Positions 17,552 through 62,488 of a stretch of DNA of 64,000 nt are shown piece after piece. This DNA is from Candidatus Altimarinota bacterium (lineage in GTDB: Bacteria; Patescibacteriota; Gracilibacteria; BD1-5; UBA2023), in contig JANNCQ010000067.1 in the NCBI GenBank assembly GCA_031386685.1, positions 71-64,070 of the forward strand, in the 5' to 3' direction. Made by a program: the position numbers and the translations under genes. The notes beneath the pieces were generated by a model, which was not told where the DNA came from, did no database searches, and was given only the letters and a program-made list of their open reading frames with translations. Every line of letters starts with the position of its first letter. The first letter of the stretch is position 1.

Positions 17552-19012
17552 TTATCTTTTAAACCAGGAACGAAATATCTTTTCATTCTCAGGGTCTTCT
17601 AATTTTTCGAAGATATAGTCGAGCATTGATATTTGGATACGAGTTTTATCATCTTTTGAAAAATTCGAAAACACATTTCCATGCTGAGTAAAAGCATAGA
17701 TAATATCTACTCCCATGTAGGGCTTATACACATGATCAGTATAGCCTGGAAGTCCATCGAGTGTCGATGATATCACCGCTATCTTCGTGACATCACTATT
17801 CGCCATAGCTTTATAAGTCTCCTTTCCTGTTTCGAGCATTGGCGTAAGGAGAAAATCTTCTATACCCATTCGACCAAGCATTCGAGATTCATCACTTGCA
17901 TAAACTTTCCCATCATAATTATAGGCAACTCCTCCTATAGCGATTCATGATGGCGACCGAATATCCATAAATGAACTATCTGTATTGAAAAATAATTTGT
18001 TAAGATATACGAGAGTGAGCATCTCTCGAAGGATAATTCATTCTCTATTCTTCTCGAGAATATAGTCCATAGCATTCTTATAAAATTCGAAGTATTCATC
18101 CAGTGAATATTCAAGTGTCTCTCTTTCTGCTGCAGCAAATCCGTAAGGATTGAGCCATCTGAGTCAGATAGTAGGAAATCCAAGTTCTACATATGTATCT
18201 ATAATATTCTTATAGTTCTTAAGTCCTGGCTTTGTCCACGTAGCGAGAGTCCCTGTTTTGTATCAAGTTTTTCACCGTTTCTCATTCTCTTCGTTAATGC
18301 GTTTAATCCAGTGCGTTACTCTTTCATAACTATCCCCTTCTTTCCATGTTCTTTGCCAATTATGAGTCTCCTTATCTCCATCAAGTGAAGTACAAATTTC
18401 TACTCAATGATCAAGAAGCCATACGAGCTTATCTTCAGTCATGAGGGTAAGATTCGTCACTATCGTGAAAGAGAGAACTTTTCGGAACAAATTAGCCTTC
18501 ATGCGAGCATATTCAACGATGAATTGAACAACTTCCCAATTCACAAGAGACTCTCATCACTGAAATTCGATCGTCAAGGCCGGGGCTGAGGTATAAAATA
18601 TAGTATCTACAACTTTTCTCGCTACATCTTGTGTCATATCAAGATTCTTAGCAGACATAGGAGCTACTGCAGCATGACAGTACTTACACTTATGATTACA
18701 TCTCAGTGTCGTGACGATCATATGAAGGCTTGGACCATAGGCAAGGAACTTATTTTTTTTATTATATGAAATTATAGCTCTATCTTGATACTTTTCATTT
18801 TTTATAAAAAGTTTCTTATTCAGCTCATCATATTTCGGATTTCCGACTCCTATATTTCCTGCGAGATAATCCTCGAATTCAGCGAAATCAAGAAATGTAT
18901 AATATCCAAATTCATTGGTAATAAGATACTTTCCATTTTTCATCTTTTTATAATAAAAAGGTGCGACTGTGGTCGCTGAAAAATTCTTTATTGAGGAAAG
19001 TGTTATGCTCAT
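17552..19012 (-). CDS. hxsB: His-Xaa-Ser system radical SAM maturase HxsB-like
   Basis: 486 aa with CNHKCKYC, TIEFQ-G-G-ESL (GGE, both Gly are TGA), and an anaerobic-sulfatase-maturase-like middle region. Merges track ORFs 18557..19012 and 17552..17881. Confidence 0.85.
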
Positions 19013-50157: not shown

Positions 50158-50922
50158 CTATATGACTTTCTTCGGAAGAGTCACTTTCTCCTCCCACTGT
50201 TTCTTCCGAGAGACAGCGTTCTCAGCAGCATCTTGCTCTCATTTTTTCTTGCTTGATCCCTTTCCTTCTCACAGTGTGACTTCACCCAGTGAAGCTGATA
50301 TCACATAGAGCTTATTGTGATCAGCTCAATCCTCACTCATGATCGTATAGGTCGGTGTGATACCCCAGATTGCCTGAGTATACTCTTGGAGATACGACTT
50401 CGGATCGACATAGAGCCCATGGGCCAAGATCCTCGGGAGAGTCGAATATACATGTTCGAGGATGAATCACTTCACGACATCAAAACCCTGATCGAGATAT
50501 ACTGCCCCGATCATCGCTTCGAGGGTATTGGCGAGGATATACGGATTATCATGACCGAGAGCGAGGGACTCACCTCGAGAGAGCTGGATCGCAGGAGAAA
50601 ATGAAAGCTTACTCGCTATCTCTGCAAGATTACGACCTCGTACGAGGGCTGAGCGGATATCGGTAAGCTCTCCTTCTGTCTTCTCTCTGAATTCATGAAA
50701 AAGTGCTTCTGTCACTATGAGTTCGAGCACCGCATCTCAGAGATATTCGAGGCGTTCATTGGACTCTTCATATCATACATGTGCTTCATTGAGCACGCTT
50801 CGGTGGATACAAGCGAGGATATAGAGATTTCTATTTTTCGGGAGAATCTGGAGAGAAGAGAGGAGTGATCCTACCTTCGCTTCAAACTCTTCACGATCAT
50901 AGCGAAGAGGAGTGCGTGGCAT
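50158..50922 (-). CDS. rnc: ribonuclease III
   Basis: NERLEYL-G-DAVLELIVTE (ERLEFLGD signature with TGA at Gly), NTLEAMIGAVYLDQG, and a C-terminal dsRBD. 254 aa. Confidence 0.9.
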
Positions 50923-50949
50923 AAAAGAAAGGGTTATAAAAAATTAAAA

Positions 50950-55919: not shown

Positions 55920-56156
55920 TTACGCACGTATCTTCGTCGGAGTGACACTTCGTCCAGTACGGACAGAATATACCTTCTTTCCTTTGTACTCTCCAGTGAT
56001 CGGAGAAGCGAAGTGAGAAAGTGCTACTGCCTTACCTTCAGTATTATACTGGAGTGAGACACCGTCTTTGAGGCGTTTTGCATTGAGGCGCACCCATGCT
56101 GAGTAGCGTCTTTTTCCGCGGACTTTCGAGAGTTGCTGTGGAGGAGAGATAGTCAT
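55920..56156 (-). CDS. small basic protein (possible ribosomal protein, family not recognised)
   Basis: Track ORF of 78 aa, Lys/Arg-rich. It follows rpmA, is preceded by the same repeat module, and is followed by a terminator. Confidence 0.45.
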   Translation of the reverse strand: MTISPPQQLSKVRGKRRYSAWVRLNAKRLKDGVSLQYNTEGKAVALSHFASPITGEYKGKKVYSVRTGRSVTPTKIRA

Positions 56157-56251
56157 ATAAGAGGAGATTTTAGATTTTAGATTTATGATTTATGATTCGA
56201 TACAGTTTCATTCTAGAATCTGTAATCTCGAATCTGTAATCAAGAGAAGCT
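56157..56251 (-). repeat. intercistronic repeat module 1 (rpmA to small basic gene)
   Basis: Sense strand: TTACAGATTCGAGATTACAGATTCTAGAATGAAAC, then degenerate AATC(A/T)TAA/AATCTAA heptads ending 9 nt before ATG. Confidence 0.85.
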
Positions 56252-56524
56252 CTAGGCAACGGAAACATAGATGTCACGATACGTACGTCCATCGAATCGG
56301 ACACGGCGCTTCTCTTGGAATGAGACAACTCCATCACGCACAGCGAAGAGAGTAAAGTCTGTTCCCTGTTCTACACCACTTCCAGCCCAGAAAGAATTCC
56401 CTCTCTGACGTATGATGATGTTCCCAGAAATAGCAGGCTGACCACCATAGATTTTTACACCGAGTCTTTTGGCTTGTGAGTCACGACCGTTGGTGGTCGA
56501 TCACATTGCTTTTTTATGTGCCAT
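56252..56524 (-). CDS. rpmA: 50S ribosomal protein L27
   Basis: [36 protein letters not shown]. 90 aa. Confidence 0.9.
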
Positions 56525-56622
56525 ACTGTTGAAGTTAGATTATAGATTATAGATTATAGATTATAGATTATAGATCGAGAGTATTCTATTTCTAGAATCT
56601 GTCATCTCGAATCTGTAAACTA
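56525..56622 (-). repeat. intercistronic repeat module 2 (rpsG to rpmA)
   Basis: Core TTACAGATTCGAGATGACAGATTCTAGAAATAGAAT plus five TAATCTA heptads (plus-strand TAGATTA x5). Confidence 0.9.
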
Positions 56623-57078
56623 CTACTTGTTATTCGCGTATCGAGCAAATGCCTTATTGGCTTCTGCCATCTTATAGACATCGAGCTTCTTCTTTACAGC
56701 AACTCCAGTCTCAGTAGCAGCATCGATGAGCTCTTGAGCCAGGAAGTGACAGAAGTCTTTCCCACTTTTCCCACGTGCAGCTCAGAGGATCCAGCGAGTG
56801 GCAAGAGCAAATGAACGACCTGGAGGGACTTCAGTCGGGACTTGGAATATAGCACCACCGACACGCTTTGGACGACATTCAATCTTTGGAGAGACATTAT
56901 CGATAGCTTTGTCGAATACTTCTTCAGGATTCGTATATCCCTTTTGGCGAAGGATATCGAAGGTCGAGTTAATAATCTTCTGTGCGAGGGTTTTCTTTCC
57001 TTCCTTCATGACATAATTGACGAACTTCTTGAGTCGCTCGTTTTGTGTCGAGAATGATACGCTTCCTTTGGTACTCAT
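56623..57078 (-). CDS. rpsG: 30S ribosomal protein S7
   Basis: [42 protein letters not shown]. 151 aa. Confidence 0.92.
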
Positions 57079-57235
57079 AAAATTTATAATTGATTAGAAG
57101 ATGAGAGATGAAGTAGCCTCAGCTATGATCCTACTTCGTGCAACTCGAGGTTTCTGTCATATCGAACGAATGTGAGACATCTTGCCCTTTGACAGGATTC
57201 CTCGCATCCGCCCGAAATGGCAGGATGACACACTA

Positions 57236-57655
57236 TTATTTCTTTGCTTTTGGCTTCTTGGCTCCATAGAGTGAGCGAGACTGACCGCGCTTATCGACTC
57301 CCTGACAATCGAGAAGACCTCGAACGATATGGTAACGTACACCTGGAAGATCCTTCACACGGCCTCAACGAATCATCACGACGGAGTGTTCCTGAAGATT
57401 ATGACCTTCACCTCCAATATAGGAGATGACCTCATATCCATTGGTGAGACGTACCTTCGCTACTTTTCGGAGGGCTGAGTTCGGCTTCTTCGGGGTACTC
57501 GTGTACACCTTGAGACAGACTCCACGTCGCTGAGGAGCAGAGAGAGGAGAGAGAGTCTTTTTGAGGGAGTTCTTATTGAACTGTAGCGCTGGAGATTTGC
57601 TCTTACGAGTAGGATCTTTTCGCTTTTTACGGACAAGTTGATTGATTGTAGTCAT
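57236..57655 (-). CDS. rpsL: 30S ribosomal protein S12
   Basis: [47 protein letters not shown] at 57365-67 is the invariant Gly. Confidence 0.95.
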
Positions 57656-57750
57656 GGAAGTTATTTAGATTTTAGATTTAGGATATTAGATATGAGATTC
57701 GTGACAGTACTATTTCTAGAATCTGTCATCTGGAATCTATAAACTCTATT
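57656..57750 (-). repeat. intercistronic repeat module 3 (rpsI to rpsL)
   Basis: Core TATAGATTCCAGATGACAGATTCTAGAAATAGTAC plus degenerate heptads. Confidence 0.85.
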
Positions 57751-58146
57751 TTAACGTTTAGACCAAGAACCTGCTTTACGAGCCTTATGAAGACCTGGTT
57801 TCTTTCGCTCAACCTTACGTGAGTCACGTGTGAGAAATCCAGCTCCCTTAAGAGTTTTTCTGAGATTCTCATCGACGACGACAAGGGCGCGAGCAACGGC
57901 ATGGCGAATTGCTTGTGCCTGTGCTGACTCGCCTGATCCAGATACTTGGATATCAAAATGGAAAGACTCATACACTCCTGCAGTCTTGAGTGGAGAGTAT
58001 ATCGCAGAGAAAAGATCTGCTCTTTTAATATAGGTTTCGAGGGGCATACCATTAGCAGTATTTGTTCCTTTACCTTTATAGAGACGGATCTCAGCGACTG
58101 CTGTCTTGCGACGACCGACTGCGTATGCGTATTTTGCTTCTGACAT
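57751..58146 (-). CDS. rpsI: 30S ribosomal protein S9
   Basis: Track ORF of 131 aa. GRRKTAVAEIRL...GGESAQAQAIRHAVARAL...RKKPGLHKARK..SKR. Confidence 0.92.
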   Translation of the reverse strand: MSEAKYAYAVGRRKTAVAEIRLYKGKGTNTANGMPLETYIKRADLFSAIYSPLKTAGVYESFHFDIQVSGSGESAQAQAIRHAVARALVVVDENLRKTLKGAGFLTRDSRKVERKKPGLHKARKAGSWSKR

Positions 58147-58169
58147 AAAAAATAAGTGAGTTAGGCGGA

Positions 58170-58601
58170 TTATAGGGTGATAGCTTCAGGCTTCTGTGCT
58201 TCGAAATCATGCGTAGTACCGACGACGAGCTTGAGGCGTTTTGACATCTCATTCGTGAGACGATTTTTCGGGAGCATACCTTCGATCGCATGACGAAGCA
58301 TATGTGTCGGGTGCTTTTTCTTCATTTTACCGAATGGAGTCTCCTTGAGTCCTCCCATGTACTGGGAATGTGTACGATACATCTTCGCTGTTTCTTTTGC
58401 ACCAGTGACAGTGATCTTATCGGCATTGAGGATAATGACATTCGCACCATTATCGATATGTGGAGTATAGTCGACACGATCTCGACCTGAGATCATACGA
58501 GCGATAGAAGTAGCGAGACGACCGAGGTTTTTCCCCTCAGCATCAAGGACGAACCATTTGCGTTCGTTACCGGGAATTGCTTTTGCGACAAGAGTTTTCA
58601 T
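58170..58601 (-). CDS. rplM: 50S ribosomal protein L13
   Basis: Track ORF of 143 aa. WFVLDAEGKNLGRLAT.IA..L.GRD...YTPH.D.G..VI..NA. Confidence 0.92.
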   Translation of the reverse strand: MKTLVAKAIPGNERKWFVLDAEGKNLGRLATSIARMISGRDRVDYTPHIDNGANVIILNADKITVTGAKETAKMYRTHSQYMGGLKETPFGKMKKKHPTHMLRHAIEGMLPKNRLTNEMSKRLKLVVGTTHDFEAQKPEAITL

Positions 58602-58692
58602 GGGAGAGATTTTAGATTACTGATTTGAGATTACTGATTTGAGATTACAGATGGGAGATAGTTCTATTACTAGAATCTGTAATCAATTTGAG
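58602..58692 (-). repeat. intercistronic repeat module 4 (rplQ to rplM), variant
   Basis: Only one ACAGATTCTAG copy. The heptads are replaced by a doubled 14-nt unit (plus-strand GATTACTGATTTGA x2). Confidence 0.75.
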
Positions 58693-59052
58693 TTATACGA
58701 GTTCGATCTTTACAAGCTTAGCATTATCACCATCACGATACTTAATCGGGATGATGCGAGTGTATCCTCCCTTCATCTGGGCATAGTTCTTCGCGAGTGT
58801 GAGTAGAGAGACGCTTGCTTCTTTGGTGAAGAGTTCAGCACCGATCATACGGATTTTATTGTATTCTGTATGAGGTCCTTTCGCAACTTCGATCAATCTA
58901 TGAGCAGCTCACTCCATAGCAAGAGCACGCTTCTCAGTCGTCTCGAGACTCTTATGAGTGAAGAGACTTGTAAGAAGATTTCGGACTACTGCCTTTCGGT
59001 GATTGGTGTCTTTACCATTGAGATGAAGATGTTTTTTGACTCGGTGGCGCAT
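58693..59052 (-). CDS. rplQ: 50S ribosomal protein L17
   Basis: MRHRVKKHLHLNGKDTNHRKAVVRNLLTSLFTHKSLETTEKRA..GGYTRIIPIKYRDGDNA. 119 aa. Confidence 0.9.
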
Positions 59053-59139
59053 GATTTATAGATTTTAGATTTTAGATTTTAGATTTTAGATTCGTGATAG
59101 TTCTATTGCTAGAATCTGTCATCTCGAATATGAATCACT
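59053..59139 (-). repeat. intercistronic repeat module 5 (rpoA to rplQ)
   Basis: Core ATTCGAGATGACAGATTCTAGCAATAGAAC plus five AATCTA heptad copies ending 7 nt before ATG. Confidence 0.9.
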
Positions 59140-60117
59140 TTAGTCGTCTCCAAGAAGTTTGAGACCGCGACCTTTGAGAGCCTCTCTGACTTCTGTCATT
59201 GCCTTCTTTCCGAAACCTTTGATCGAAGAGAGTTTTGCTTCTGTACATTTTGTGAGCTGCTCGATAGAGAGTATATCTCAGTTGACGAGAGCATTGAGTG
59301 TACGCGGTGAGAGTCCCATGATTTCGATCGGAGTATAAGTCTCCTTTTCCAGATCTGCTTTGACTTCTTGTTTCTCACGTTCGATCACTTCACGGATATC
59401 AGAGATGAACTCTCCACCGACTTGTAATTTCTCTTCATTGAAGAGAGAGAAGTATGATTCAAGCATTCGGCTCGAGAACTTCATGACTTCTGAAGGAGAC
59501 ATGACGCCATTAGTTCGGACAGAAATTTCGAGAGAATCAAGAGAAGTGAGCTCACCATAGCGAGTCGTCTTGATTTCATATTTTACATTTTGTACAGGAG
59601 AGAAGTTCGCATCGAGTACGAGAACTTCCACATCTTCTTCTCGTTTCTTAAGATCATCGATAGACACATATCCGACATTTTTCTCGACTCGAAGCTGCAT
59701 AGAGAAATCAAATCCAGCATCAATAGTCGTGATATAACAGTCAGGATTGAGTATCTCGATACCTGTAGGGCACTTGATATCAGCACCAGTGACAATACCT
59801 CCTTTCTTTTTTGTAAGGGTAAGCCATTCAATATCAGTAGAATCTTTTTTGACGACGAGAGTTTTGACATTGAGCATCATATCGAGGACTGATTCACGGA
59901 CACCAGGAAGAGTCGAATATTCATGAGAAACTCAAGCGATCTTCACTCCAGTGACACGAGCACCTGGAATAGAAGAAAGCATAACACGACGAAGAGAGTT
60001 TCCAAGAGTGACAGCATATCCACTAGGAAGAGGTTCAATGACGAAGAGTTCTTCTGTAGCAGAGATGATTTCACGACGAATTTTTGGAACTCCGATGACA
60101 TTATGGAGGATATGCAT
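59140..60117 (-). CDS. rpoA: DNA-directed RNA polymerase subunit alpha
   Basis: [32 protein letters not shown], plus a C-terminal domain with [10 protein letters not shown]. Three track ORFs are joined by TGA. 325 aa. Confidence 0.92.
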
Positions 60118-60162
60118 AGATCGAAGGAGAGGTAAGTAAGAAGAAGCTTGGTATATCAGAGA

Positions 60163-60783
60163 TTATTTTGAGTAGAACTCGACGATACGCTGGACATCGA
60201 TCATTTGGTCGAAGTCACCTTTTTCTGGAAGAGCGGTGACCGTGATAGAAAGTTTTTTTGGATCGACAGTGAGCCAGCGAGAAGCGGTGATCTGAGCGGT
60301 AGCATTTTTCGAAGCAAATGACTGGAACTCTTCTACGAGAGTTTTATAGAGAGGAGATTCTTTCATACGTTCCTTGAGAGTGATGACATCACCGATAGAA
60401 AGCTCATATGAAGGGATATTCACTTTCTTCCCATTAATAAGGAAGTGTGCGTGCCCGACAGTCTGACGAGCCTGCATGATCGTTCGAGCAAAGTTTGCTC
60501 GGAAGATGACATTATCGAATCGAGTCTCGAGAAGCGAAAGCATAGCATCACCCGTAACACCTGATACCTTTACAGCACGATCATAATAACGAGAAAACTG
60601 CTTTTCAGTAAGTCCAAACTGACGTTTTGCAGCTTGCTTCTTACGAAGTTGAACTCCAAATTCAGAAAGCTTTCCAGCACGCTTCACTTTTCTGTTATTA
60701 TTTTCGAGGTTATATTTCTCTACGCCGAAGAGATTGTACCCTTCACGGCGGCAGAGTTTCATTTTAGGTCCAGTGTAACGCAT
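60163..60783 (-). CDS. rpsD: 30S ribosomal protein S4
   Basis: Track ORF of 206 aa. MRYTGPKMKLCRREG..YGVQLREKQK-like region and an S4 domain. Confidence 0.95.
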   Translation of the reverse strand: MRYTGPKMKLCRREGYNLFGVEKYNLENNNRKVKRAGKLSEFGVQLRKKQAAKRQFGLTEKQFSRYYDRAVKVSGVTGDAMLSLLETRFDNVIFRANFARTIMQARQTVGHAHFLINGKKVNIPSYELSIGDVITLKERMKESPLYKTLVEEFQSFASKNATAQITASRWLTVDPKKLSITVTALPEKGDFDQMIDVQRIVEFYSK

Positions 60784-60876
60784 AAATTAATAGATTTTAG
60801 AGTTTAGATTATAGATTTTTGGATCAGAGACTATTCTATTTCTAGAATCTAGCATCTCGAATCTGTGATCTTTTTT
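60784..60876 (-). repeat. intercistronic repeat module 6 (rpsK to rpsD)
   Basis: Core CACAGATTCGAGATGCTAGATTCTAGAAATAGAAT plus four degenerate heptads. Confidence 0.85.
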
Positions 60877-61269
60877 TTAAAGTTTACGAGCCTTACGTTT
60901 GCGGCATCCATTGTGTGGAACAGGAGTGATATCATAGATGCCGATAAGTTCTACTCATGCATTGATGATTCCACGGATTGCTTGTTCACGACCAGCACCG
61001 ATACCCTTCACATAGACATGAGCCTTCTCGACATTATGTAGAGTCTTTGCTTTTCCGACTGCCTGTTCACTCGTAATTTGAGCAGCATATGGTGTTGCTT
61101 CACGAGCACCCTTGAAGCCTGCAGTACCTCAGGTCGACCACGTGAGTACTTGACCTGAGAGATCAGATACGACGACATGAGTATTATTGAGGGTAGCAGT
61201 GATGCTGATGATTGCTTCTGGGACATTTTTACGAGTTTTTTTGGAGCGGCGGAGTGTAGCTTTTGCCAT
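60877..61269 (-). CDS. rpsK: 30S ribosomal protein S11
   Basis: ITATLNNTHVVVSDLSGQVLTWST-G-GTAGFKGAREATPYAAQ..GIGAGREQAIRG. 130 aa. Confidence 0.92.
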
Positions 61270-61361
61270 AAATTTTTAGATTTTAGATTTTAGATTTTAG
61301 ATTTTAGATCTGAGACTGTTCTATTTCTAGAATCTATCATCTCGAATCTATAATCTTATGA
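61270..61361 (-). repeat. intercistronic repeat module 7 (rpsM to rpsK)
   Basis: Core TATAGATTCGAGATGATAGATTCTAGAAATAGAAC plus (ATCTAAA)x4-5 ending 6 nt before ATG. Confidence 0.9.
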
Positions 61362-61727
61362 TTACTTCTTCTTATTCATCACCGTGACGACCTTACCCTT
61401 ACGAGTTCGAGCATTGGTCTTCGTTCTCTGTCCACGTACTGGAAGGCGCTTCTTATGGCGAGATCCTCGATAACATCCGATATCTTGAAGGCGCTTGATA
61501 TTACTTGATACCTCTCGGCGAAGATCACCCTCTATGATATAGAGTTTGAGTTCCTCACGGATTTTATCGAGCTCTCCTTCAGAGAGATCGCCCATCTTCT
61601 TATTCCAAGCGATACCTACCTTTGTAAGGATCTTCTGAGCAAGAGGACGACCGACACCATATATATACATGAGAGAGATTTCTGCATGTTTGCTATCCGG
61701 GAGATTTACTCAAGCGATACGAGCCAT
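61362..61727 (-). CDS. rpsM: 30S ribosomal protein S13
   Basis: MARIA-G-VNLP (TGA at 61710-12 is the invariant Gly) ..[36 protein letters not shown]. Confidence 0.93.
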
Positions 61728-61812
61728 AATAGAAAAGAAATTAGATTTTAGATTTTAGATTTTAGATCCGATACAGTTCTATCTAGAATCTGTAATCTCG
61801 AATCTTGGCTCA
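61728..61812 (-). repeat. intercistronic repeat module 8 (rpmJ to rpsM)
   Basis: Core AGATTCGAGATTACAGATTCTAGATAGAAC plus (ATCTAAA)x3-4. Confidence 0.9.
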
Positions 61813-61926
61813 CTAGCCTTGTCTTTGTTTGTGCTTTGGCTCTTGGCATATCACACGTACGACACCCTTACGACGGATGACGACACACTTATCACAGATT
61901 TTCTTGACGGATGGACGGACTTTCAT
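61813..61926 (-). CDS. rpmJ: 50S ribosomal protein L36
   Basis: [37 protein letters not shown]. 37 aa. Confidence 0.9.
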
Positions 61927-62015
61927 ATGTGGTAGGTTTTAGATTGTAGTTTTATAGATTGGAATCAGGATAGTTCTATTTCTAGAATCTGTAATCTAGA
62001 ATCTCTTATCTAGGT
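61927..62015 (-). repeat. intercistronic repeat module 9 (infA to rpmJ)
   Basis: Core AGATTCTAGATTACAGATTCTAGAAATAGAAC plus three degenerate heptads. Confidence 0.85.
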
Positions 62016-62279
62016 TTATTTCGAGCGATTTTGGTAGACTGGAGCATTGGCATTGGGCTTACGGAAAGTGATACGTCCGCGAGTGAGATCATAGGGAGTG
62101 AGCTCCACTGTGACGGTATCTCAGGGGATAAGGCGGATCATATTTTTCTGCATCTTCCCACTTGCATACGCACGTATGACCATGTTTGAGAAGGCTTCAG
62201 GAAGCTCTACTTCAAAAATGGCTCATGGGAGGGCTTTGAGGACTTTTCCCTCGACTTCGATTTTATCATCTTTCGGCAT
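62016..62279 (-). CDS. infA: translation initiation factor IF-1
   Basis: [55 protein letters not shown]. 87 aa. Confidence 0.92.
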
Positions 62280-62488
62280 ATGGATGCTGAAACGGGGGGA
62301 TTAATTCAAAAATAAGCTCGTGTAGTATATAAAAAAGGGCATATAAAGCAAATGAATTTCGAAAAATCTCTTGCACCCTTCTTATTCTGCTTCTGTAGAG
62401 CCTTTCTTATGAGAAATATATGAGCAAAATATGTAGTCAAAGGTGTTCCTTATTCAATAGACGACATTCAACATTATGATTTTTAATA

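Follow-up and report, generated by a model that had tools for sequence, protein, structure and literature searches.

Heptad arrays in the ribosomal-protein gene clusters of a gracilibacterium are one half of a hairpin-capable module in a lineage that appears to lack Shine-Dalgarno pairing

The ribosomal-protein gene cluster at 55920..62279 (minus strand) of a 64,000-nucleotide (nt) stretch of Candidatus Altimarinota bacterium DNA (contig JANNCQ010000067.1; the whole stretch is called the window below) is punctuated by tandem 7-nt repeats lying shortly before start codons. Here we report that these heptad arrays form the 3' half of a polar module of about 90 nt, preceded by a complementary arm with a GNRA apex, and that they make leaders free of G and of start codons in a lineage that, judging by the 16S tails of its relatives, probably has an altered anti-Shine-Dalgarno sequence and appears to initiate translation without Shine-Dalgarno (SD)/anti-SD pairing. 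The period of 7 is independent of the repeat unit, and the modules turn over fast, with changes in copy number. We tentatively favor the view that each module is a structure-poor, start-codon-free leader for SD-independent initiation; slippage would create it and change its size, and the complementary arm would titrate part of it.

Read with genetic code 25 (TGA = Gly), the cluster has the order infA-L36-S13-S11-S4-rpoA-L17-L13-S9-S12-S7-L27, followed by an open reading frame (ORF) of 78 amino acids (aa). Tandem heptads close 9 of its 12 spacers on the sense (minus) strand, with AATCTAA or a variant of it (ATCTAAA, ATCTATA, ATCTACA and ATCTCAA/ATCAGTA were seen) in 3 to 6 copies. Arrays with a period of 7 or 14 were confined to this part of the window, where Tandem Repeats Finder returned the following:

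56536-56575, TAGATTA x5.7, 100% matches
59053-59092, x5.6, 96%
61274-61309, x5.1, 100%
61741-61767, x3.9, 100%
58608-58652, 14-nt unit x3.2, 93%
57664-57699, x5.1, 75%
60791-60819, x4.1, 81%
56165-56184, x2.9
61932-61961, 14-nt unit x2.1

These results bear out the original prediction, made from the letters of this DNA, that unit and copy number differ between spacers and that the L17>L13 spacer holds a doubled 14-nt unit; the copy numbers given there were right or slightly low. For the distance between repeat end and ATG it had stated about 5 to 10 nt; arrays end 5 to 15 nt before the ATG in seven of the nine modules. The strict chain is farther away in the two modules with degenerate arrays, by 32 nt in m3 and 29 nt in m9.

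On the sense strand, the module reads stop codon, 0 to 12 nt, (AGATTNN)3-4, TTCTA-GAAA-TAGAAC, about 10 variable nt, (ATCTAAA or variant)3-6, a tail of 5 to 15 nt and ATG. Modules thus occupy the whole gap from stop to start, beginning 0 to 12 nt past the stop codon, and the nine spacers that hold one are 85 to 98 nt long. Because the heptad core AATCT and the 5'-half core AGATT are reverse complements, the module forms an imperfect inverted repeat, which a profile search matches on both strands. Both arms keep this 5-bp core, the 2-nt linkers vary, and a 5-bp stem capped by a GNRA loop makes up the apex (UUCUA-GAAA-UAGAA). The nine modules, numbered m1 to m9, are as follows:

61927..62015, minus strand: m9, infA>L36, 89 nt; degenerate 3' arm AATCTATAAAACTACAATCTAAAAC; apex UUCUA-GAAA-UAGAA
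61728..61812, minus strand: m8, L36>S13, 85 nt; ATCTAAA x3 and ATCTAAT at 61743-61767, 15 nt to the ATG
61270..61361, minus strand: m7, S13>S11, 92 nt; five perfect ATCTAAA at 61278-61309, 8 nt to the ATG; fold -22.3 kcal/mol, z -4.2
60784..60876, minus strand: m6, S11>S4, 93 nt; four degenerate heptads at 60792-60816
59053..59139, minus strand: m5, rpoA>L17, 87 nt; ATCTAAA x4 and ATCTATA at 59060-59098; apex loop GCAA
58602..58692, minus strand: m4, L17>L13, 91 nt; repeated 14-nt unit ATCTCAAATCAGTA; six ATC-phased heptads at 58607-58645; apex loop GUAA
57656..57750, minus strand: m3, S9>S12, 95 nt; degenerate heptads
56525..56622, minus strand: m2, S7>L27, 98 nt; ATCTATA x5 and ATCTAAC at 56537-56575, 12 nt to the ATG
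56157..56251, minus strand: m1, L27>78-aa ORF, 95 nt; five heptads at 56165-56196

None of the motifs GGAG, GAGG, AGGA, GGA or GAG occurs in the last 22 nt of any of the 12 spacers, and the last 30 nt of each hold 0 to 2 G. Across the genome (1.40 Mb, 91% complete; G000 below), SD-like 4-mers were found in 7% of the regions upstream of 1290 crudely called gene starts, against 15% in the coding background, and G made up 8 to 12% of positions -20..-1. The 16S gene is absent from this assembly, and the anti-SD was read from the 16S of relatives. In three genomes of the same genus, the 16S 3' tail is GGACTATCTCTTTAT, against GGATCACCTCCTTA in E. coli; the gene ends in GGACUAUCUCUUUAU (loci L062, L064 and L065 of genomes G004, G001 and G005), with the CCUCC core turned into UCUCU by C-to-U changes, showing that the anti-SD core has been lost in these genomes. 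Inspection of the 16S 3' end in relatives is thus in line with the absence of SD motifs that the original prediction had claimed. Among eight more genomes, of which one belongs to the same family and seven to the order, the tails are ..ATCTCTTTA, ..ATCTCCTTA or ..ACCTCTTTT, the other families of the order having differing partial losses of the anti-SD (..ATCTCCTTA or ..ACCTCTTTT). A modified SD fitting the altered tail (AGAGA or GAGAU) was rejected, being depleted upstream of starts (6.5% versus 12%). The genome encodes an S1 homologue with about four S1 domains (C26:8152-9216).

Canonical TTGACA/TTGCAT-16/17-TATAAT promoters are common genome-wide. In many strong TTGACA-16/18-TATAAT promoters, the -10 box ends exactly 6 nt before the ATG (for example C14:7599, C17:63867, C65:4284 and C83:33366), which suggests from sequence that leaderless mRNAs are common in this organism. 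At 61% of starts, the base just before the start codon (-1) is T.

The composition of these leaders extends to relatives, as seen in 640 ribosomal-protein spacers from about 90 related loci. G accounted for 3.2% of their last 30 nt, and start-like triplets for 0.7% of leader positions versus 4.6% genome-wide, a 6.5-fold depletion. The median G-free run before the ATG was 32 nt in the two ribosomal-protein clusters of G000, where it often reached 38 to 42 nt, compared to 8 nt for other genes and 4 nt for random intergenic positions. Whatever the unit, autocorrelation over the 640 spacers peaked at lag 7 (0.436 versus a baseline of about 0.34) and at lag 14, and 14 of 19 start-proximal tandem repeats in relatives had a period of 7, with a median end 5.5 nt before the ATG. 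Stop codons in three frames were considered as the cause of this period and rejected as a weak effect (13% observed versus 8% in shuffles). The reverse complement of the local heptad 5-mer was present in the spacer's own 5' part in 12 cases versus 3.1 expected, and 0 of 2000 permutations reached 12.

Long spacers of relatives also folded better than their shuffles (mean z -1.8, n = 79, P about 6e-17). Module stems consist of 5-bp helices interrupted by 2x2 internal loops, at -10 to -22 kcal/mol. Most copies have GAAA as the apex loop, m5 has GCAA and m4 has GUAA, and one apex stem pair is U-A in 17 copies, C-G in four and U-G in one and is never unpaired; GNRA loops together with a U-G intermediate point to RNA rather than DNA. 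A compact apex fold and a long arm-arm fold lie 0 to 5 kcal/mol apart and leave about 30 and about 15 nt, respectively, free before the AUG. Rfam gave nothing at gathering score in the window. Its only weak match, the Alpha operon leader Alpha_RBS (RF00140; 26.3 bits at 61695-61793, below the gathering score of 38), was rejected, the match being driven by the N-terminal codons of S13. Mimicry of rRNA by the 5' half was likewise discarded, three same-genus 16S loci giving only chance matches of 7 to 13 nt, as was a boxA-like antitermination signal, since the sequence in the rrn leader and spacer of this genus, GAACCTTAACA, is, read by eye, unlike the heptads.

The module is a genome-wide family. 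Arrays made of at least two ATCTNNN units followed by ATCT number 38 in the genome, compared to 0 to 6 for scrambled cores, indicating that they are not due to chance, and the module profile gave about 30 matches, about 22 of them full-length. Ten copies lie in the S10/spc cluster of contig C21, before L4, L23, L2, S19, L22, L29, S14, S8, L6 and L15, and further copies precede L28, rpoB, obg, mfd and the genes of an SLH-domain surface protein and a FecR-like secreted protein. In total, a module stands before about 17 of about 50 ribosomal-protein genes, versus a handful of about 1240 others. In every gene-adjacent copy, including all nine of the window and those of C21, the G-free arm points to the start of the downstream gene. 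Downstream genes thus comprise those for ribosomal proteins, rpoB, obg, an S-layer-like protein, tRNAs and, in the close species G008, atpG; there, a near-consensus module precedes atpG in the ATP synthase operon (locus L164, G008:C36, about 18570-18633), which indicates that the family is not limited to translation genes.

Several of these sites had peculiarities of their own. The longest array of the genome is found 14 nt upstream of the mfd start (C18:33202-33317) and comprises 17 heptads, mostly as the 14-nt unit ATCTGTAATCTAGC. The C21 ribosomal cluster begins at L3, without a preceding S10, and has a perfect TTGACA-16-TATAAT promoter and a 126-nt leader (C21:19873-20220), with heptad arrays directly upstream of the -35 box of this promoter. 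A second copy of the first 22 nt of tRNA-Leu(caa) lies about 120 nt upstream of the intact gene at C68:1349-1552 (locus L168), with a GC-rich hairpin between the two; the site looks like an insertion into or beside the tRNA gene with duplication of its 5' end.

Gene calls were crude ORF calls, and promoters were scored by simple consensus matching. Canonical promoters stand at the head of both ribosomal clusters, TTGACA-16-TATAAT before L3 on C21 and TTGCTT-16-TATACT before infA, the latter about 45 nt upstream of the ATG and with the same shape, TTGCxT-16/17-TATAxT, as the tRNA promoters of this genome. The cluster promoter, read from the sequence, and the genes, in their code 25 reading, are as follows:

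62324..62351, minus strand: cluster promoter; -35 TTGCTT (62346-62351), 16-nt spacer, -10 TATACT (62324-62329)
62016-62279, minus strand: infA
61813-61926, minus strand: L36
61362-61727, minus strand: S13
60877-61269, minus strand: S11
60163-60783, minus strand: S4
59140-60117, minus strand: rpoA
58693-59052, minus strand: L17
58170-58601, minus strand: L13
57751-58146, minus strand: S9
57236-57655, minus strand: S12
56623-57078, minus strand: S7
56252-56524, minus strand: L27
55920-56156, minus strand: 78-aa ORF

The in-frame TGA of S12 aligns with a Gly of E. coli S12. The 78-aa ORF, which lies 3' of L27 and is preceded by a module of its own (m1), encodes a basic protein, is kept at the same position genus-wide (59 to 86% identity, and 97% over a partial match in G008) and had no match in Pfam; it may be an unrecognized ribosome-associated protein.

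Upstream of obg, tRNA-Gly(UCA) and tRNA-Gln, a canonical promoter is likewise followed by heptads or heptad-like palindromes inside the predicted leader, and heptads before tRNA-Met lie in the spacer following tRNA-Ser. The modules themselves had a mean best sigma-70 score of 8.5 of 12, versus 7.8 for shuffles (P above 0.05 in 20 of 23 modules), whereas real promoters of this genome score 10 to 12; only the S8, tRNA-Glu and m2 copies stood out, and a scan of the whole region gave 15 sites versus 12.9 in shuffles. Modules as promoters were therefore rejected: TAGAAA-17-TAAAAT occurs at their centers, yet scores equal those of shuffles, and the real promoters upstream are far better. The last heptad was also rejected as the -10 box of leaderless mRNAs, because genuine ones lie 6 nt from the ATG and those of the modules 7 to 17 nt. 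With canonical promoters upstream and shuffle-level scores of their own, the modules are taken as transcribed. Membership of the repetitive extragenic palindrome (REP)/REPIN or miniature inverted-repeat transposable element (MITE) families was rejected as well, the modules being multicopy and palindromic but uniformly oriented relative to the downstream gene. No Y1/RAYT transposase (PF01797) was matched in the 91%-complete genome, and mobilization by a RAYT or IS200-type enzyme was rejected on this ground.

Gene order is kept across the family, while spacers are not. The closest species, G006 and G008, are 87 to 91% identical to G000 in coding DNA and 63 to 77% at third codon positions, and even where ribosomal proteins are 97 to 100% identical between species, a module may be present in one and missing from another; at the empty sites of G006 and G008, no clean flanks in common were found. 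Among the module spacers, the m5 orthologue in G006 is 75% identical, and the m2 orthologue in G008 is degenerate and 65% identical. Within the genome, by contrast, copies are 83 to 94% alike, versus 58 to 75% for orthologous copies between species. The AGATT family is nevertheless genus-wide, with positions kept at L15, L22, L23 and L28, those at L15, L22 and L23 in five species of the genus, and the consensus of the 5' half is up to 94% identical between G000 and G001, versus only 50 to 60% at third codon positions. Other species have the same architecture built from other units (TAAATGA...TTTATAA, AATTG...CAATTAA, ATAAGAT...ATCTTAT and TATCAG...CTGATAC). The original prediction of copy-number change driven by slippage found support between species: before L15, the heptads number 5, 5, 3, 3 and about 2, and several arrays are perfect despite a neutral divergence of about 25 to 35% from the nearest species, which implies recent slippage. 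A metagenome scan gave no match above 93% identity, and an exact look-up of the S4 protein was empty.

Three spacers of the cluster are free of modules, and overall, module-free spacers are 94 to 98% identical between G000 and close species:

60118..60162, minus strand: S4>rpoA, 45 nt, CT-rich
58147-58169, minus strand: L13>S9, 23 nt
57079..57235, minus strand: S12>S7, 157 nt; folds at -46 kcal/mol; single-copy in the genome

The S4>rpoA and L13>S9 spacers are 98 to 100% identical to those of G006 (S4>rpoA 98%), with only about 70 to 75% identity at synonymous sites, and on this comparison they appear to be under strong constraint. The S12>S7 spacer may represent a structured leader of the S7 type or else a hairpin element that was inserted there; it shows 94% identity to its G008 counterpart and is replaced in G006 by an unrelated 118-nt spacer with heptads.

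According to the leader reading, each array would be the 3' half of a transcribed intercistronic module of about 90 nt, in which a G-free tract, (AAUCUAA)3-6 plus a 5- to 15-nt tail and typically 38 to 42 nt long, reaches the AUG. Lacking G, such a tract can contain no AUG, GUG or UUG and can form only A-U pairs. It would thus act as a single-stranded loading zone, on which the 30S subunit, perhaps via the S1 homologue, would engage the first start codon. The heptad form would arise from replication slippage favoring 7-nt units, and ongoing slippage would expand, contract and homogenize the arrays. The 5' arm can pair with the proximal heptads, and the excess heptads would then determine the length of open leader, the arm-arm fold leaving about 15 nt and the apex fold about 30 nt. 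Polycistronic transcription of the modules, ribosome loading and tuning of expression by copy number are what we infer from these sequences. A much bolder version, which we regard as a long shot, is that Gracilibacteria replaced SD pairing at genes of the translation apparatus by a GNRA-capped hairpin and a G-free heptad landing pad, that each cistron's output would depend on how many heptads stay unpaired, with slippage retuning it over short evolutionary times, and that a dedicated reader (S1, a cold-shock-domain protein or a hairpin-binding protein) would exert coordinated control, as with eukaryotic 5'-terminal oligopyrimidine (5'-TOP) mRNAs.

Several observations weigh against the leader reading. 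One module copy lies immediately 5' of tRNA-Glu and another adjoins the 22-nt duplicate of the tRNA-Leu(caa) 5' end, which is separated from the intact gene by about 120 nt; at neither site can translation be the function, and it is thus not the whole story. The original prediction had considered neither such copies on other contigs nor the heptads as half of a larger hairpin-capable inverted-repeat module, both of which speak against a purely translational role. Transcription of the modules is probable, as judged from promoter placement only. Covariation at the apex is modest, 28 and 36 of 500 shuffles reaching the observed values, and the four C-G cases may represent few independent events. 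Hairpins of the sense strand are weak (z between -0.7 and -4.2), and the sense RNA folds 4 to 12 kcal/mol less stably than the antisense strand, as expected if G was purged from the start-proximal arm. G006 and G008 have no module at infA>L36 and S9>S12, where their spacers are 20 and 42 nt, and distant members of the family have spacers of 0 to 40 nt throughout. Module-bearing spacers are 58 to 75% identical between species or are replaced outright, thus diverging at or above the neutral rate while module-free ones are kept, which argues against strong constraint on the module sequence. Finally, the period of 7 could be mutational bias alone, since no other class of long simple repeat is as common as heptanucleotide repeats in many bacteria (Mrazek 2007, summarized in PMC4679880).

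This divergence, together with the presence or absence of modules beside nearly identical ribosomal proteins and the greater likeness of copies within the genome than between orthologues, is what makes a serious rival of the idea that modules are tolerated selfish or neutral repeats, slippage-prone DNA in G-poor spacers that spread by inverted duplication (template switching) or gene conversion, with only the start-adjacent G-free composition selected. The arms of each relative are made from its own unit (TAAATGA/TTTATAA, ATAAGAT/ATCTTAT, TATCAG/CTGATAC), which fits local inverted duplication, and other small hairpin repeats occur in the spacers of relatives as well. We rate this idea as somewhat less likely than the leader reading. 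Against it, orientation is strictly polar (about 20 of 20 copies), enrichment before genes of the translation apparatus is strong, no Y1/RAYT transposase was found, modules persist at L15, L22 and L23, the 5'-half consensus outlasts third codon positions between G000 and G001, and the apex combines GNRA loops with compensatory change.

The same hairpins might serve as intercistronic elements of RNA processing or stability, cut by RNase III or blocking exonucleases so as to give a protected 3' hairpin and a free 5' leader. RNase III sites lie between the early genes of phage T7 and in the E. coli rplL-rpoB spacer. The exact fit of modules into stop-to-start gaps, hairpin potential above that of shuffles, the GNRA apex and the copies before rpoB and tRNAs, where processing makes sense, all agree with such a role, as does an RNase III gene in the window (50279-50926, minus strand), whose product is the candidate enzyme for any processing of module hairpins; this gene holds six in-frame TGA codons. 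Segmented 5-bp helices with 2x2 internal loops, however, make a poor substrate for RNase III, whose sites are double-stranded stems of about two helical turns, and relatives do without such sites; we find this role improbable. We consider it less likely still that modules act at the DNA level, as internal promoters (a TAGAAA -35 box and, 16 to 17 nt on, the TAAAAT of the first heptad as -10 box) or as heptad operators like those of the omega repressor of pSM19035 or the TTTTGAT repeats of V. cholerae ctxAB. TAGAAA-16/17-TA(A/T)AAT is indeed present in m2, m7 and the L15 copy, TTGAAA-17-TAAAAT precedes S8, and TTGATA-16-TATGAT is central in the tRNA-Glu copy; a 5-bp core with variable 2-nt linkers resembles protein-binding heptads, G000 uses the single core AGATT, and the downstream genes look like a regulon. 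But promoter scores are no better than those of shuffles, heptads lie downstream of the canonical promoter at obg, tRNA-Gly and tRNA-Gln, the several unrelated units per genome in relatives would call for several regulators, and the apex points to RNA.

The closest parallel to these leaders is the TAACTGA heptamer direct repeats of marine Beggiatoaceae, also found in some Cyanobacteria and Bacteroidetes (MacGregor 2015, PMC4679880). Both are tandem 7-nt units in 2 to 6 copies that end a few nt before starts, in spacers where SD motifs are rare, and both lie inside ribosomal-protein operons. Binding of S1, Csp or CsrA-type proteins was proposed for the TAACTGA repeats, their function being unproven (PMC4679880). 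With AATCTAA instead of TAACTGA, the elements are of the same kind but not of the same family. The Beggiatoaceae keep a canonical anti-SD; their repeats have no complementary upstream arm (one indirect repeat among 169 sets), whereas the arrays here are half of a polar hairpin module; and their downstream genes follow no clear functional pattern, whereas those here center on translation. The GGGNATC repeats of Cyanobacteria and Xanthomonas (Rehm 2015, PMC4692102) and the TTTTGAA repeats near the recF/recO starts of Nostoc (bioRxiv 10.1101/2022.06.06.494920) are also 7-nt tandem repeats of variable number, over-represented between co-directional genes, mostly transcribed and suspected of regulation near starts. 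They differ in being G-rich and quadruplex-forming or not G-free, and in being spread genome-wide rather than focused on ribosomal genes. REP, REPIN and MITE-like palindromes share with the modules the form of short, multicopy, imperfect intergenic palindromes with fast turnover between species, but here no RAYT/Y1 transposase was found, orientation is strict, and the arms consist of tandem heptads, one of them purged of G.

Bacteroidetes, too, initiate independently of SD sequences, and the lack of SD motifs, the A/U-rich, structure-poor upstream regions and the many -10 boxes 6 nt before the ATG recall such initiation and leaderless initiation. Bacteroidetes are known to keep CCUCC in their 16S, whereas in the genus studied here the 16S sequence itself has changed to UCUCU, and we know of no repeat-built leaders described for them. 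Loss of the anti-SD has been reported for some Parcubacteria (PMC9297842). In Moraxella catarrhalis uspA2, AGAT tetranucleotide repeats tune expression from the 5' untranslated region, according to the account cited in PMC4679880; there, too, repeat number lies in a transcribed leader and sets expression, but at a contingency locus for a surface antigen rather than at about 20 housekeeping genes. We found no description of such modules in Gracilibacteria in the literature; the paper on a curated Gracilibacterium genome (PMC6851277) describes a coding PTD repeat and not these spacers.

In large parts of the bacterial tree, it is still a question how ribosomes choose internal starts when SD/anti-SD pairing is missing. 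To address it, the present locus provides a compact and testable natural set of about 20 related leaders, with 2 to 6 heptads and with or without a complementary arm, in a lineage whose 16S lacks CCUCC. If the modules are only tolerated repeats, SD-less spacers would be unusually permissive, and their fast turnover would be useful for strain markers. If, on the other hand, translation is set by heptad number or by the balance of the arms, the modules would represent a new means of fixing the stoichiometry of ribosomal proteins, and this would also explain the similar repeats in Beggiatoaceae and cyanobacteria.

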